From assembly GCA_040376635.1 (NCBI GenBank), contig JBEIQF010000001.1:1-55529 (forward strand): 55,529 nt of DNA, read 5' to 3'. The DNA comes from Halobacteriovoraceae bacterium. GTDB lineage: Bacteria; Bdellovibrionota; Bacteriovoracia; Bacteriovoracales; Bacteriovoracaceae. The position numbers and the translations under genes were made by a program. This document shows, one piece after another, positions 45,837 to 55,529 of this stretch; positions within the stretch are counted from its first letter, which is position 1; the number at the start of each line of letters is the position of its first letter. The notes under the pieces were generated by a model that searched no databases, was not told the origin of the DNA, and saw nothing but the letters and a program-made list of their open reading frames with translations.

Positions 45837-47480
45837 CTACTTTTTAAAACCGATTGTTGCATTTGCGCGGCCATTGCCATCAGAGCGGAATTCCAGCTCA
45901 TTTAAGTAAGTACCTTTGAGTTCCTTCATTTCAACATCGATGAGAGTTTGACCATTAAACGTATCAATCTCTTCATGAATAGCCTTAAGCACTTTGTTTC
46001 TGAATCTTGGAACTGAATTGACTGTCGTCGGCAGTCCGTATTGATCAGCACCTTCAAGGAGAAGTTTATCTTCAGTCGCAACTTTCACAACTTTTATTGT
46101 AAAGTGAGGAACTGAATCCACTTCAACAATATTCAACGCAATCATGAATCTGATCGGGAAACGAATTTCCGAACGACCGACCATGACTCTCTGAGCACCT
46201 TTGAGTTTATAGATGATATCGATATACATCGACAGCAATTCACCTTTTTCTTCAGCAAGGATGAATGATTTCTCAGGACCCATAACGAAGTCTTTACCTT
46301 TGAAAGACTCCTCCCATAATCCAGCCTTAATCGTCGTGTTCACGATTTGGTTCAGATAATGTTCACTCATGCTCATTGCTACGTTCGTTTTCTTTTCAAT
46401 AAGACCACGGTTCAGTTCACGCATGGAACGCTGGAACTGAGTTGGGTCGATTTTTCTGCGGAGTTTAGTTGGGATTTTATTGTCTTCACAAAAACCTTCA
46501 CGAAGAAAAGTACTTTCATTGCAATAATGCCCATCAAGATCGAATTGTACGATACCGGTATTGTTCACGCTCATTTGCTGAACATCAAACACACCTGGAA
46601 TCTCACCCTCCATCCCAAACTTACGTGGCAGTGTTAGTTTCTTCGGATCATCTTTGATGACGTTCGCAAATCGTTCATTAAGTTTTACATTAAGAAGATC
46701 GAGAACACCTTTTTTCATTTGCTCTTCACGCTTGATGAAGAAACGTTTGATTTTCTGCTTATCAAAAGTGATTTCTTTGTGACCGATGCGAATAGAGACA
46801 TCAGGCATGATCATGTCACGAACTTTCAGATCAATCATGTCAGGACTATTAACGACTCTTTCCATGATCTTTCTGATGTCGACACTTTCAAGATTCAGGA
46901 AAATATTGTTCGGGGCTATTGAAGTAGACCATCCCATAGAAACTTCTGCCATGAGTTCAGGACTCACTATAAACTCTGGCTCGATCAATTCGACTGAAAA
47001 AATAATTGGTTCACGAGTCTGAGTTTGTTTTAATTGAACTTCAAAGCTGATTTTGTCCGCTTTGAGATGAACTCCACGCACGTAACTTGTCGTTACGTAT
47101 TCCACTCTTTGCTGAGTTGAAGTTCCAGGCTTAAATTCGGCATTAAAATCACTGATGTTATAAGCGAAATTTTCTACTCTCAGTTTATAATCAGATTCAA
47201 ACAACTGAATCTTCACCACTGATTGAAATTCCCGAATCCAATTCTGAGTATCGCGCGGGACTTCATCAAGGACCTTCGCGAGATCGATGACAATAGGTTT
47301 TTTGATTGTCTGAGAGTAAGGATCACCAAAATTATTGTTAGCGAGAAAAATACGAAGTTGAGTGATGAAATTTTCAGAAGAATCCAGATCAAAGCGGGAT
47401 TTGAAGACAATATCCTGCTGTTCCTGAGCAGATACACCCATTGAGAGGATCAACATAAATAAAGAGATAAGGAATTTCAT
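45837..47480 (-). CDS. Hypothetical secreted protein, possibly BPI/LBP (TULIP)-like
   Basis: 547 aa, signal peptide, beta-rich; AMSMSEHYLNQIVNTTIKAGL segment. Confidence 0.65.
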   Translation of the reverse strand: MKFLISLFMLILSMGVSAQEQQDIVFKSRFDLDSSENFITQLRIFLANNNFGDPYSQTIKKPIVIDLAKVLDEVPRDTQNWIREFQSVVKIQLFESDYKLRVENFAYNISDFNAEFKPGTSTQQRVEYVTTSYVRGVHLKADKISFEVQLKQTQTREPIIFSVELIEPEFIVSPELMAEVSMGWSTSIAPNNIFLNLESVDIRKIMERVVNSPDMIDLKVRDMIMPDVSIRIGHKEITFDKQKIKRFFIKREEQMKKGVLDLLNVKLNERFANVIKDDPKKLTLPRKFGMEGEIPGVFDVQQMSVNNTGIVQFDLDGHYCNESTFLREGFCEDNKIPTKLRRKIDPTQFQRSMRELNRGLIEKKTNVAMSMSEHYLNQIVNTTIKAGLWEESFKGKDFVMGPEKSFILAEEKGELLSMYIDIIYKLKGAQRVMVGRSEIRFPIRFMIALNIVEVDSVPHFTIKVVKVATEDKLLLEGADQYGLPTTVNSVPRFRNKVLKAIHEEIDTFNGQTLIDVEMKELKGTYLNELEFRSDGNGRANATIGFKK

Positions 47481-48919: not shown

Positions 48920-49333
48920 ATGGATACGCAAACTACCCCTAATTATGACAATGTGATTTTTTTTGATGGTTACTGTGGGCTCTGTAATGGATTCGTCGAC
49001 TTTGTGATGTCTATCGACAAAGAAGAGAAGTTTAAATTCTCTCCCCTACAAAGCGAATTTGCACAGAGAAATCTCCCACCAGAGATGACTGCAAATCTTG
49101 ATTCAGTCGTTTTTCTGAAGCAAGGAAAGACATATAGAAAATCAAAAGCTGTGATTCGTATTCTGGAAGACATGGGTGGAATCTGGAAATTTGCGACGAT
49201 CGGAAAAGTCATGCCTGAAAAGTTTCTCAATAGCGCGTATGACTTGGTAGCAAAAAATCGATATAAGCTATTTGGCAAAAAAGAAACTTGTCGACTCCCT
49301 ACGCCGGCTGAGCGCGCACGATTCATTAGCTGA
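48920..49333 (+). CDS. DCC1-like thiol-disulfide oxidoreductase (DUF393)
   Basis: IFFDGYCGLCNG.V.F, F.F.PLQS, Y.LVAKNRYKLFGK.ETC.LP. Confidence 0.92.
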   Translation: MDTQTTPNYDNVIFFDGYCGLCNGFVDFVMSIDKEEKFKFSPLQSEFAQRNLPPEMTANLDSVVFLKQGKTYRKSKAVIRILEDMGGIWKFATIGKVMPEKFLNSAYDLVAKNRYKLFGKKETCRLPTPAERARFIS

Positions 49334-52187: not shown

Positions 52188-52220
52188 AAAAAAAAGCCCC
52201 TCTTTAAGAGGGGCTTTTTT
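52188..52220 (-). terminator. Intrinsic (bidirectional-type) terminator closing the HTTM operon
   Basis: A8-GCCCCTCTT-T-AAGAGGGGC-T6. Confidence 0.85.
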
Positions 52221-52221
52221 A

Positions 52222-53154
52222 TTAAGCTGGTGATGGTGATCTTGAAGGTAGAAGTCTAACAAATCTTTGTTTGAACCAATCTATCTCTCTCGGTTCCAGG
52301 AACAATATGTAAGCTGCGATCATAACCCATTCGAAGAATCCGATACTCATTGAAACTTCGATTCCCAGGTGAAGAAGAAGTCCGGCAAGTAAAACCCAGA
52401 TCCTCAACTCTTTTACCCAGACCAGGGTTCCCATCGCAAATTCAATAAAGAGGGCCGACCAGGTTGCGAATTTAACTAAGGATGGAAAATCAAATACAAT
52501 CGGTAAAACAATTCGCTGGAAGTTTACTAACCGGGATGTGTAGTAAACGGCCGTTCCATCTACCCAGTCATATCCTTTTAATTTAAAAAGCGTTGTTGCG
52601 AAGTAAACCAGAGAGAACTGAAGCTGCATCAGTCTTATGGTGACCAACGATATTTCAGGGCCGTAGGGAGTTCCTCTTTCTTTTTTTAAGAAAGCATCGA
52701 CCGAATACTTCACATGGGTCGGAGCAAAGATCATCAAAAACAACATACATCTCATAAGAGTGTCACCGCTGTTAAGGATCGAGTAGTTCCGGTTCTGCAT
52801 AGAAACCATCAGGATAAAGCACACGATCGTCGAGATGCGTGTTTTGAAGCCGATCATGATAAAGACTGAAGACACAATATAAGAGATCAGGACGAACCAG
52901 GCAGAGAATTCTGTTGGTGAAAGCCAGTTATAAATATTAAAACGGAAATTGCTGTAAAAGTTTACAGCTTCTTCGAGCGGAATTAGGGACTTATCCCCTA
53001 ACCCATACCACTCATGAAAATCTTCAACTAAGCTGATTCCGTTTATAAAGAGAAAGACACCGAACATGATGCGAAAGATGCATAAGGCCGAAGCATCGGT
53101 CTTCTTGTAGAAGAAATTATCCCAGCCAGTCATAAATGAGTTAAGTGAAAACAT
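52222..53154 (-). CDS. HTTM domain membrane protein (vitamin K-dependent gamma-carboxylase/SdpB-like), copy 2
   Basis: L.IFRI.FG, GFKTR, RN...LNSGD, SVD, RLMQLQ..VYF....KL...W.DGTA, W....E, LHLGI.....IGFF..M. Confidence 0.88.
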   Translation of the reverse strand: MFSLNSFMTGWDNFFYKKTDASALCIFRIMFGVFLFINGISLVEDFHEWYGLGDKSLIPLEEAVNFYSNFRFNIYNWLSPTEFSAWFVLISYIVSSVFIMIGFKTRISTIVCFILMVSMQNRNYSILNSGDTLMRCMLFLMIFAPTHVKYSVDAFLKKERGTPYGPEISLVTIRLMQLQFSLVYFATTLFKLKGYDWVDGTAVYYTSRLVNFQRIVLPIVFDFPSLVKFATWSALFIEFAMGTLVWVKELRIWVLLAGLLLHLGIEVSMSIGFFEWVMIAAYILFLEPREIDWFKQRFVRLLPSRSPSPA

Positions 53155-53156
53155 AA

Positions 53157-53684
53157 TTACCTCTCAACCTGTTGAGTGATCAGAACTTCGTTTTTTTCCT
53201 GTCTTGGAGTCTTGTAGATAGACGGAATTGAATGATCGGAGAAAGCGTGGATCTCAGACCACTTTCTCTTAATTTGAACATTCACAATTGGATTCCCCTC
53301 AATCTGATACTTACGAGTGAAATATCTAATTGCAGGTTTAAGAAGAACTCTTTGATTAGGATTACGAAGGTTGTCCTGTGAATATTTCATCCAGCGGGCC
53401 TTTCTGAATGGCGCCAACAATCCCTCAGGATTTTTCTCTACATCGTATTCTTTCACATCACCGTTTTGGTAAGTGATCGCCACATAACTTTTTGAATCGA
53501 ACTTGATCGGATTTGGTGCGAACATCGACCAGCTCGGCCAGATACCTACTGCGAAAGCAACTTTCATCGCTTTATCTTTCAATCTGAAATTGAGAGTATT
53601 CGTTTCAGGTACTCCTGCAAAATAGATCACAGCCAGATAGGACACAATTAATGTGTTCAGAATGTACTTAGTTAACCGTCTCAT
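53157..53684 (-). CDS. SdpA/DUF5819-like membrane-anchored partner protein, copy 2
   Basis: N-terminal TM, WPSWSMFAPNP, R..RW.KY; overlaps the upstream HTTM gene. Confidence 0.72.
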   Translation of the reverse strand: MRRLTKYILNTLIVSYLAVIYFAGVPETNTLNFRLKDKAMKVAFAVGIWPSWSMFAPNPIKFDSKSYVAITYQNGDVKEYDVEKNPEGLLAPFRKARWMKYSQDNLRNPNQRVLLKPAIRYFTRKYQIEGNPIVNVQIKRKWSEIHAFSDHSIPSIYKTPRQEKNEVLITQQVER

Positions 53685-54639
53685 GTTGACCTCTTACTGT
53701 TCTGATTAGTTTTTCTTTTATTTCATTCGCTAAATTCGTGTCATTGATTCCAGAAATGAATGCCTCTTTCATCTTCACAACGAATGCCTTCAATTCTTCA
53801 GGAGTGAAGAAGTTCATCAGAAGAACAATCATCGACAATTCAAAGAATGGAATACTCATCGTGTATTCAATCCCCAGATGGAAGAGGACACCTACGATAA
53901 TGACTGGTTTACGAAGCTTTTTAACCCAGATGAGAGACCCCAGAGAGAATTCAACTAACAAAGCTCCCCAAGTAGCGAGCTTGAGGAACAGCGGCGAATC
54001 TAACAAAAATGGCACAGGGAAATTTGTTAATCCTTCGATTCTCGTCGCATAGTAAACAGCTGTACCATCTAACCAAGTATCCCCTTTCAGTTTGTGCCAC
54101 GTCGTCCAAAGATACACGACAGAGATCTGAATCTGAATGAGGCGTAGTGCCCAAACAGGCCACGTTCTCTTTTGACGAAAACTTTCAAAGTATCTTCCCA
54201 GTAAAGAATCCACTGAAAATGAATGTCCACATGGAGAGCAAATAAGAAGCAATGTAATGGCCCTCATTAACATTTCAGACGAGCTTAGAAGCCATATGTT
54301 GCGCTGGTGAAGACTCGCCATACAAATGAATGCAATCATCAATGAACCGCGTGTAAATAATCCCAACATCGCAGTGATGAGTGAGATTCCGTAAACAATC
54401 ATCACTCCATAAGCAACTTCATAAGTTGGTTTAAAAAGTTTAAACAAACTTATATGCAAAAATGGGAATTCATTTTCAGCAGTTGTATGGGAAATAATGG
54501 CATGAGGACCATAGAAGTCAGTGACATTACCGAGATCCATAAGGAAATAACAGAAAAGTAATCCGGTCCAGATGATTCTGAAAAGTGCGATCCCTTCTGT
54601 TGGTCTCTCTTCAAAGAAGAATTTATTAAGCGCGTTCAT
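53668..54639 (-). CDS. HTTM domain membrane protein (vitamin K-dependent gamma-carboxylase/SdpB-like), copy 1
   Basis: IALFRI..G, GLFTR, RN, FSVD, W.LRLIQIQ.SVVY....KL...W.DGTA, FHLGI.....IPFF..M; TAATG overlap with upstream gene. Confidence 0.88.
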   Translation of the reverse strand: MNALNKFFFEERPTEGIALFRIIWTGLLFCYFLMDLGNVTDFYGPHAIISHTTAENEFPFLHISLFKLFKPTYEVAYGVMIVYGISLITAMLGLFTRGSLMIAFICMASLHQRNIWLLSSSEMLMRAITLLLICSPCGHSFSVDSLLGRYFESFRQKRTWPVWALRLIQIQISVVYLWTTWHKLKGDTWLDGTAVYYATRIEGLTNFPVPFLLDSPLFLKLATWGALLVEFSLGSLIWVKKLRKPVIIVGVLFHLGIEYTMSIPFFELSMIVLLMNFFTPEELKAFVVKMKEAFISGINDTNLANEIKEKLIRTVRGQHETVN

Positions 54640-55169
54640 TACAGCACCTCATGGGTGTAGAATTTATGTTTTGAATGGGACTTTGCTTTAGATAAATGAG
54701 GAATGAATTTTTTATCCATGTCTGGAATAATGTTCCAATGACGATAAAGATGAACTTTCATAGGGATTTTGTGAAAGTTATTTTCTTTTAACTTTCTCAA
54801 TGCAAACTTCGAAGTATCAGGCCACAAATGACTGTTTACATCTTTACGAATAGCTTCTGTGATCACGCGATATCTTTCACCATGGGTATATTTATCGGCT
54901 AGGTTCATTTTAGATGCATCTGGAAAATAATAAACATCAGTTGAACCATCATCAAACTCCACTTCTGCAGTTAAATGAACATTTGTCCTGGCGGGATTGG
55001 GTGAAAACATCTTCCAGCTTTGATAAAGACTAAAAAATGAAAGATAAGAATCAATAGGCCTGTAGAGACTTGCCACAATTTCATTTTGCATTGGCATGTG
55101 AATGCGAATCATGGTGAGAAAATTGAAAACAATGAATCCCGAAATCAAAAACTTTTTTGTTTTGCTCAT
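54639..55169 (-). CDS. SdpA/DUF5819-like membrane-anchored partner protein, copy 1
   Basis: N-terminal TM, YQSWKMFSPNP, ERYR. Confidence 0.72.
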   Translation of the reverse strand: MSKTKKFLISGFIVFNFLTMIRIHMPMQNEIVASLYRPIDSYLSFFSLYQSWKMFSPNPARTNVHLTAEVEFDDGSTDVYYFPDASKMNLADKYTHGERYRVITEAIRKDVNSHLWPDTSKFALRKLKENNFHKIPMKVHLYRHWNIIPDMDKKFIPHLSKAKSHSKHKFYTHEVL

Positions 55170-55204
55170 AGTAAAGCCTTAGTATTTCAGTTGATGAGAT
55201 GGCT

Positions 55205-55232
55205 AAAAAAGACACCCCTGTTAAGGGGTGTC
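55205..55232 (-). terminator. Intrinsic terminator/attenuator between the NGS-repeat gene and the HTTM operon
   Basis: Minus strand GACACCCCT-TAAC-AGGGGTGTC-TTTTTT. Confidence 0.8.
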
Positions 55233-55338
55233 AACTTAGATCAAAATTGTTAAAAAAACTATTTAGGTTTTGCGCCTTTAGGAGAACTCATTATTAGCTT
55301 GCGATTAAGTCAATGATCACAACCTAACTCTGATTTCC

Positions 55339-55529
55339 CTACCAAAGATTCATGCCGCTACGGCCATTTCGTCCATTTGAACCATTGCTTCCATTCGAAC
55401 CGTTAGAACCATTCGATCCGTTAGAACCATTTGATCCGTTAGAACCATTCGATCCGTTAGAACCATTTGATCCATTAGAACCATTTGAACCATTTGAACC
55501 ATTTGAACCATTTGAACCATTTGAACCAT
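55339..55529 (-). CDS. 3' end of an Asn-Gly-Ser repeat (collagen-like Gly-X-Y) protein; 5' part outside the window
   Basis: Manual translation: (NGS)x17-NGR-NGR-SGMNLW-TAG; variation among the NGS units is synonymous (AAT/AAC, GGT/GGA, TCA/TCT/TCG/AGC). Confidence 0.8.
   Translation of the reverse strand, partial: GSNGSNGSNGSNGSNGSNGSNGSNGSNGSNGSNGSNGSNGSNGSNGSNGSNGRNGRSGMNLW
55378..55529 (-). repeat. 9-bp tandem repeat (AATGGTTCA consensus), at least 17 units, with 18-bp higher-order units
   Basis: Directly visible: tgaaccatt repeats and cgatccgttagaaccatt variants. Confidence 0.95.

Follow-up and report, generated by a model that had tools for sequence, protein, structure and literature searches.

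Two pairs of genes for membrane proteins, A1-B1 and A2-B2, follow the 3' end of a gene for a Gly-Ser-Asn repeat protein on the minus strand of the DNA stretch analyzed here (the window; 55,529 nucleotides of a Halobacteriovoraceae bacterium, contig JBEIQF010000001.1 of assembly GCA_040376635.1). This neighborhood is conserved: among 27 same-genus relatives with A1, the A/B pair is flanked by a clear repeat gene in 25 (all 27 loci were read), as checked for a linkage that a preliminary description of the locus had set out beforehand. Judged from sequence, A1+B1 and A2+B2 may be two split membrane enzymes of the GGCX fold and of the SdpAB/linaridin type, which modify the Asn/Ser/Thr-Gly tail of the neighboring protein at many sites, most likely by epimerisation of the alpha-carbon to D-residues. 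We prefer this reading but hold it tentatively. The window is a complete contig (C304) of a genome that is 92.8% complete and assembled in 515 contigs; the named relatives of the source genome are Bacteriovoracaceae, Peredibacter among them.

Linkage of repeat genes to A/B pairs

The minus-strand order is repeat gene, hairpin, A1, B1, A2, B2, and terminator-like site. The repeat gene (55339..55529), whose product is the likely substrate, is an open reading frame (55339-55527) still open at the contig end; it contains 17 Gly-Ser-Asn units followed by GRNGRSGMNLW, with an uninterrupted Gly-X-Y run of 20 triplets. A gap of 169 nucleotides separates it from A1 (54639..55169, 176 amino acids), which shares a TAATG overlap with B1 (53668..54639, 323 amino acids). 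B1 in turn overlaps A2 (53157..53684, 175 amino acids) by 17 bp, and 2 bp lie between A2 and B2 (52222..53154, 310 amino acids). No promoter-like site was found between the repeat gene and A1, and the gap holds a terminator-like hairpin of nine pairs with a T run (55203..55232, minus strand). Such a hairpin is present in the corresponding gap of 15 out of 16 relatives (0-1 of 50 shuffles each) and likely sets a high substrate-to-enzyme ratio. A further terminator-like hairpin lies 3' of B2 (52197..52213) and can be read on either strand.

Ser codons of the 17-unit repeat are synonymously mixed (TCA 8, TCT 5, TCG 3, AGC 1), which argues that the repeat is kept at the protein level. An assembly or microsatellite artefact is ruled out by this mixing together with full repeat genes in single-contig genomes. 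The sequence beyond position 55529, from which the preliminary description had hoped for a leader, was not recovered: a search of the assembly did not turn up the gene's 5' part, so its leader and its membership of the repeat-gene family, here called S, are deduced from relatives and position. S genes of the relatives encode a signal peptide, a helical domain of about 115 residues, the motif G-x-x-F-x-G-G, a hydrophobic helix, a Ser/Thr linker, and the repeat tail. The S domain matched 540 representatives (50% clustering) and was found in all 51 genus genomes, with tails that are (i) Cys-rich; (ii) His/Asp-rich; (iii) charged, Gly-Asp-Lys collagen-like; or (iv) uncharged, Asn/Ser/Thr-Gly. The leader had no meaningful match in Pfam, NCBIfam, or PDB sequences. 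Its structural model (pLDDT 78.7) gave no Foldseek match at E 0.001 and no usable match in the Atlas, and its best Z of 9.0 (root-mean-square deviation 6.8) is common among helical bundles and does not prove a new fold. Repeat tails of the relatives score as Pfam Collagen (PF01391). Over 1088 triplets, Asn (702) and Thr (223) were counted at position Y of Gly-X-Y, and Ala (12) or Ser (20) stands in place of Gly (341) between some Asn-Asn pairs. The Gly-X-Y pattern is not strict in L039, L043, and L045, the last two having tails of period 4.

Strong A1 matches were obtained in 28 of the 51 genus genomes, source genome included. At four of the 25 linked loci, a contig end cuts the repeat gene down to its tail; the two remaining relatives have short Asn-Gly tracts only. 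A2B2 was found in 10 of the 27. An enzyme-independent search of the DNA of 238 genomes for four Gly-Asn-Asn codon units (two mismatches allowed; cross-read by hand) detected the pattern in 21 of the 27 A1-bearing genus genomes vs. 3 of the 23 lacking A1; outside the genus it was present in 12 of 20 genomes that encode an A-type domain vs. 8 of 167 others. Tail composition was likewise selective. Asn, Ser, and Thr together made up at least 0.49 of the tail in 23 of the 26 S tails that have an A gene at most 2.5 kb away, whereas none of 11 charged Gly-Asp-Lys collagen tails with the same leader lay within this distance; the count omits tails of fewer than 15 residues or without a detected helix, for instance the L109 GNN tail, which lacks an A neighbor. 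Four of seven split pairs outside the genus have a repeat gene adjoining or no more than 4 kb away.

Bacteriovoracaceae also encode proteins in which HTTM and an A-like part are fused. We chose 23 fused loci outside the genus by profile score before their neighbors were seen, and a repeat gene lies directly upstream of the fused gene at 11 of them (Asn/Asp-Gly repeats, one Thr/Asn/Ser-rich), compared with none of 20 lower-scoring fused loci taken as a control. Ten of these 11 repeats ride on an unrelated carrier of 530 residues, at its N-terminus and, where the start was assembled, after a signal-like segment. The S leader is absent from the repeat partners of the fused lineage, and the carrier domain has no Pfam match apart from the repeat. 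In a quick tree, split B1/B2 formed a single clade (SH-aLRT 97) separate from the fused proteins, and 9 of the 11 repeat-linked fused proteins fell into one subclade (99) together with this genus's copy near the S locus. Because the linkage recurs in the fused lineage, mostly on an unrelated carrier, it is the repeat, not the carrier, that tracks the enzyme. Six of 74 plasmid matches were also inspected: two were sdpABC loci, two had an upstream repeat protein, and two had none by annotation. A Ralstonia plasmid locus encodes an Asp/Ala/Gly repeat protein upstream of the pair.

Several points weigh against an enzyme-substrate relationship of this kind. The related genomes are not independent in the linkage counts, and A-linked loci supplied the sequences of the S alignment. 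The Gly-Asn-Asn pattern occurs without a split A1 in three genus genomes (G019, G070, and G032), in the first of which a fused HTTM gene lies 1.2 kb away. No repeat neighbor was seen at three of the seven split pairs found outside the genus (a contig of 1.9 kb holds one of the three), at both of two more distant split pairs, or at 12 of the 23 fused loci (two of them without upstream sequence). Two A-linked tails (L044 and L045) are nearly Asn-free; Asn is thus not required in an A-linked tail. Finally, about three Lys/Arg follow the hydrophobic helix vs. about two before it, which could leave the tail cytoplasmic; paired Cys at the ends of eight tails and the signal-proximal repeats on the second carrier point to export.

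Active site and candidate reactions

The preliminary description had given the gene order with its overlaps, hairpin, and terminator, a single transmembrane helix and the motif W[KS]MF[SA]PNP in the A proteins, HTTM domains in the B proteins, and homology to GGCX and SdpB, and all of this held when coordinates were re-read and sequences scored. Both B1 (61.9 bits) and B2 (81.2 bits) pass the gathering score of Pfam HTTM (PF05090; 27.7). The A proteins have one N-terminal hydrophobic segment each (residues 7-25) and the motif W-x-M-F-x-P-x-P, as WKMFSPNP in A1 and WSMFAPNP in A2. A1, which is DUF5819/SdpA-like, just passes DUF5819 (PF19136; 27.6 bits, gathering score 27.1); A2, an old paralogue sharing this invariant motif, scores below the cut-off (16.9 bits, E 0.01), and 20 of the 31 members of the A alignment match DUF5819 at E 0.1. 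Identity is 18% between A1 and A2 and 35% between B1 and B2. The B profile aligns to residues 112-330 of human GGCX (E ~1e-16), and B1 and B2 score 58.3 and 66.3 bits on the SdpB model TIGR04033, the cut-off of 178.4 not being reached. A1 and A2 had no NCBIfam match at E 0.1, SdpA model included, and the A profile matched neither PDB sequences nor the GGCX-type protein of the source genome. The assignment of A as the C-terminal half of GGCX thus rests on fused relatives and on a preprint that already models DUF5819+HTTM as a split GGCX with A completing the fold, and that in the passages covered names no substrate for the split pair (bioRxiv 10.64898/2026.08.19.745780).

B1 K183 corresponds to GGCX K218 and is invariant in 33 rows; H254 and F266 correspond to H287 and F299, and W223 is also kept. 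At GGCX N158-N159-H160-S161, B1 has S-S-S-E and B2 N-S-G-D, i.e. Ser/Ser or Ser/Gly stands in for N159/H160 and a conserved Glu/Asp comes next; Ile takes the place of N290. Annotated SdpB proteins and DUF5819-linked HTTM proteins share the Lys, His, and Phe as well as the small-small-acid motif. In the passages covered of two GGCX structure papers, K218 is the base, N159/H160/Y395 form the Glu pocket, and mutation of N159/H160 impairs activity. The source genome's own GGCX-type protein (P0004; G000:C267:3252-4550, locus L001) has Asn-His and His-x-x-Asn and adjoins two small secreted proteins of similar make; going by its residues, it would be a better candidate for bacterial carboxylation than the A/B pairs. 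The genome contains menB, and MqnA of the futalosine route was not found.

In the mechanism that we propose, A would complete the GGCX fold with the HTTM protein B, as in the published prediction for a homologous pair. The S protein would be exported by its signal peptide, with the helical domain serving as a pro-domain, and the peptidase P409 (see below) would cut near G-x-x-F-x-G-G, leaving the hydrophobic helix and tail as a membrane-anchored fibre or a lytic peptide. The B active site would meet the repeat on the periplasmic side. A base derived from Lys/menaquinol might then remove the alpha-proton, and the conserved acid in place of the Glu pocket might return a proton on the opposite face to yield a D-residue; dehydration of Ser/Thr would be a sister outcome of the same chemistry. 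Epimerisation is favored because the linked repeats vary in side chain yet keep a periodic Gly, and backbone chemistry fits better than side-chain chemistry because the linked tails differ widely (GNN, GSN, GST, GKTS, NGNQ). A wider proposal is more doubtful, namely that HTTM/DUF5819 pairs are widespread quinol-powered membrane epimerases placing D-residues at hundreds of positions in exported Gly-periodic repeats. These would form D/L-patterned fibres or membrane-active helices on predators, with S leader, P448, and P409 as a family-wide secretion and maturation platform for exchangeable tails and tailoring enzymes.

Among the alternatives, the best placed, though unlikely, is that the repeat is the substrate of a mass-changing reaction: Ser/Thr dehydration (-18 Da) or O2/quinol-dependent Asn hydroxylation (+16 Da) at Y of Gly-X-Y, like collagen hydroxyproline. 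The prevalence of Asn and Thr at Y and the Ser/Thr stretches in all linked tails would suit it, the presence of two enzyme pairs and of two segments in the tail might reflect two reactions, and Thr dehydration, according to the sources in the parts covered, defines linaridins and requires the HTTM part together with LinL. However, period-4 tails and the replacement of Gly by Ala or Ser misfit a strict triple helix, no HTTM hydroxylase was found in the literature covered, and A2B2 is confined to its 10 relatives though both tail segments are common.

It is also unlikely that the locus is only a co-regulated surface module, where the HTTM pairs have a lipid, a quinone, or some other protein as their target and the repeat forms a collagen-like or polyproline-II fibre that stays unmodified. 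Adjacency is the sole tie between enzyme and repeat, DUF5819+HTTM pairs occur without repeats, and both the Collagen scores and the possible cytoplasmic topology of the tails would agree with such a module. Yet the pairing recurs on carriers and in enzyme lineages that are unrelated, shows selectivity for uncharged tails, and has counterparts in Streptomyces and Ralstonia. Improbable, in turn, is a role of the A/B pairs in export, folding, or cleavage of the precursor that leaves the repeat unaltered, or an action on the hydrophobic helix. SdpA/SdpB are described, in the passages covered, only as needed for the toxin to mature; signal, helical domain, and hydrophobic segment are arranged alike in S and SdpC, and mature SDP is such a helix. 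But the same leader and helix carry Cys-rich, His/Asp, and charged collagen tails without an A/B pair, the partners of the fused lineage do without the S leader, and a dedicated peptidase candidate exists in P409. Carboxylation of Asn/Asp side chains in a vitamin K-dependent reaction (+44 Da), like that of GGCX and MloH, is very improbable: GGCX homology with K218, W223, and F299 kept, Asp-rich repeats adjoining fused enzymes, menB, and the preprint's proposal, in the passages covered, for DUF5819+HTTM speak for it, but the residues that hold the substrate carboxylate are replaced, which disfavors it for A/B, and the window tail is without an acidic residue. Linkage and homology, as first described, stood and carboxylation is disfavored; the linaridin enzymes, the P409 peptidase, and the 448-residue gene had been overlooked.

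For the chemistry of SdpAB, LinG/LinL, and many DUF5819+HTTM pairs, these loci offer simple, monotonous candidate substrates (pure Gly-Asn-Asn or Gly-Ser-Asn), in which a change in mass or chirality would be easy to read. Loci where this leader carries a charged tail and no enzyme is present provide a built-in negative control, and the S family and a B1-type protein are both encoded in the complete genome of a named strain, Peredibacter sp. HCB2-198. If epimerisation holds, ribosomally made proteins containing extended D-rich stretches would represent a novel material, and the vitamin K carboxylase fold would have gained a new use.

The S-P448-P409 module and neighboring genes

Two plus-strand genes converge on B2: P448 (49474..50820), of no known family and with an N-terminal signal-like segment, and P409 (50839..52068), a zinc peptidase with a signal peptide. 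In P409, H267-E268-x-x-H271 and E288 are invariant in 27 rows. Its predicted fold is that of thermolysin/aureolysin (family M4; best Foldseek E 6e-7, TM-score 0.51/0.67 to aureolysin), and no M4 match was found in Pfam. We infer that P409 is a candidate leader peptidase; in Staphylococcus simulans, too, a peptidase of family M4 is encoded beside sdpABC. P448, which had no match in Pfam, NCBIfam, or PDB sequences, is upstream of P409 wherever both were seen. All three P448-P409 pairs of the source genome adjoin S genes, and at least 43 of 50 genus genomes have a P409 copy followed within ~1.2 kb by an S match (among 150 of the 255 matches listed; cross-read by hand). Because S adjoins P448-P409 across the genus while A/B goes with uncharged tails, S, P448, and P409 are the core module and A/B is an add-on that accompanies uncharged tails.

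Also on the plus strand, a DCC1-like thiol-disulfide oxidoreductase (48920..49333) belongs to the same block in several relatives, and window positions 45837-47480 encode a secreted-looking protein of 547 residues with no clear Pfam family. Elsewhere in the source genome (G000), one fused HTTM + A-like gene is split over two contigs (C179:1282-2691 and C7:2-742) and followed by trpS; fused gene and trpS sit a few kb upstream of S in close relatives, and C7 therefore probably precedes the window. A further HTTM system comprises an HTTM-DCC1 fusion (C232:1995-3726) with a 172-residue partner of one transmembrane helix upstream. Seven more S-family matches are located on contigs C40, C87, C115, C118, C221, and C280, with Gly-Asp-Lys collagen, Cys/Tyr-rich, or Asp-His-Asp-Tyr tails. 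In relatives, Cys-rich S genes form tandem arrays of up to five (L124, L128) and resemble secreted disulfide peptides. A much diverged, repeat-free S-like gene stands between S and A1 at three loci (L035:11414-12142, L036:13539-14282, L039:12584-13306). The conserved terminal motif G-x-G-N-G-D-Q-D-A-P-G-x-x-C-x(2,3)-N-N-A-E-N-x-G-C, noted at L042, L048, L050, L094, L096, L117, and L118, caps eight tails, charged and uncharged classes alike. At L176 (5831-8185), L177, L175, and L194, the unannotated 530-residue domain bears Asn/Asp-Gly or Ser/Gly repeats at its N-terminus and is encoded upstream of HTTM genes. On a Streptomyces plasmid (L222:2513-3763), the gene for a protein of the ice-binding family, whose long tail consists of Thr/Gly/Ala/Ser repeats, lies directly upstream of DUF5819 + HTTM.

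Comparison with known systems

Full-text searching, with most subscription journals outside its coverage, did not bring up any paper dealing with loci of this type; the published background was taken from the available parts of 10.1101/2020.07.09.196543, PMC9927463, PMC10849128, PMC10373908, PMC10406935, 10.1101/2025.02.09.637231, PMC12647623, and PMC13343845.

Like Bacillus SdpABC (TIGR04034, TIGR04033, TIGR04032), the locus has an A-then-B pair beside a signal-peptide precursor with a helical domain and a hydrophobic segment, with Lys, His, Phe, and small-small-acid in B and W-x-x-F-x-x-x-P in A. Unlike SdpABC, the A/B proteins are below the family cut-offs, the pair is duplicated, the host is a diderm predator, and S tails have 60-400 repeat residues. 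SdpC was not among the NCBIfam matches of S, and hhalign gave a probability of 0.7% (against two SdpC sequences only). SdpI/SdpR were not found among the neighbors scanned.

With linaridins (LinG, the HTTM part of CypH/LinH, and LinL) the locus shares, at the domain level and as known from descriptions seen in part, an HTTM protein and a small partner for many-site modification of a ribosomal peptide. It differs in that the S precursor is a large signal-peptide protein instead of a short leader-core peptide, and no LinE alpha/beta-hydrolase, methyltransferase, or decarboxylase was found among the 10 neighboring proteins scanned (up to the contig end). CypH/CypL are reported to carry out epimerisation and dehydration. 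In the passages covered, linaridin clusters, nearly all of them actinobacterial, encode an HTTM protein and their products carry dehydrobutyrine; a review reports several D-residues in type A linaridins, with grmL as proposed epimerase. At the domain level, the linaridin enzymes appear to be the closest relatives with a reported change in product.

GGCX and MloH share the fold family, the catalytic Lys, and the quinone-pocket Phe/Trp with the B proteins, and the split DUF5819 + HTTM arrangement agrees with the preprint model; in B, the Glu pocket is replaced, and a GGCX-type gene (P0004) exists separately in the genome. As in the collagen-like proteins Scl1/Scl2 and Lcl, Gly-X-Y runs score as Pfam Collagen, and S paralogues carry charged Gly-Asp-Lys runs. 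Unlike them, S is far under the cut-offs and has uncharged Asn/Ser/Thr triplets, Pro is outside the ten commonest X or Y residues, and the register breaks in relatives. By the tests run, the A/B-repeat system is thus likely not a member of SdpABC, linaridins, or GGCX, and it likely works like the first two.

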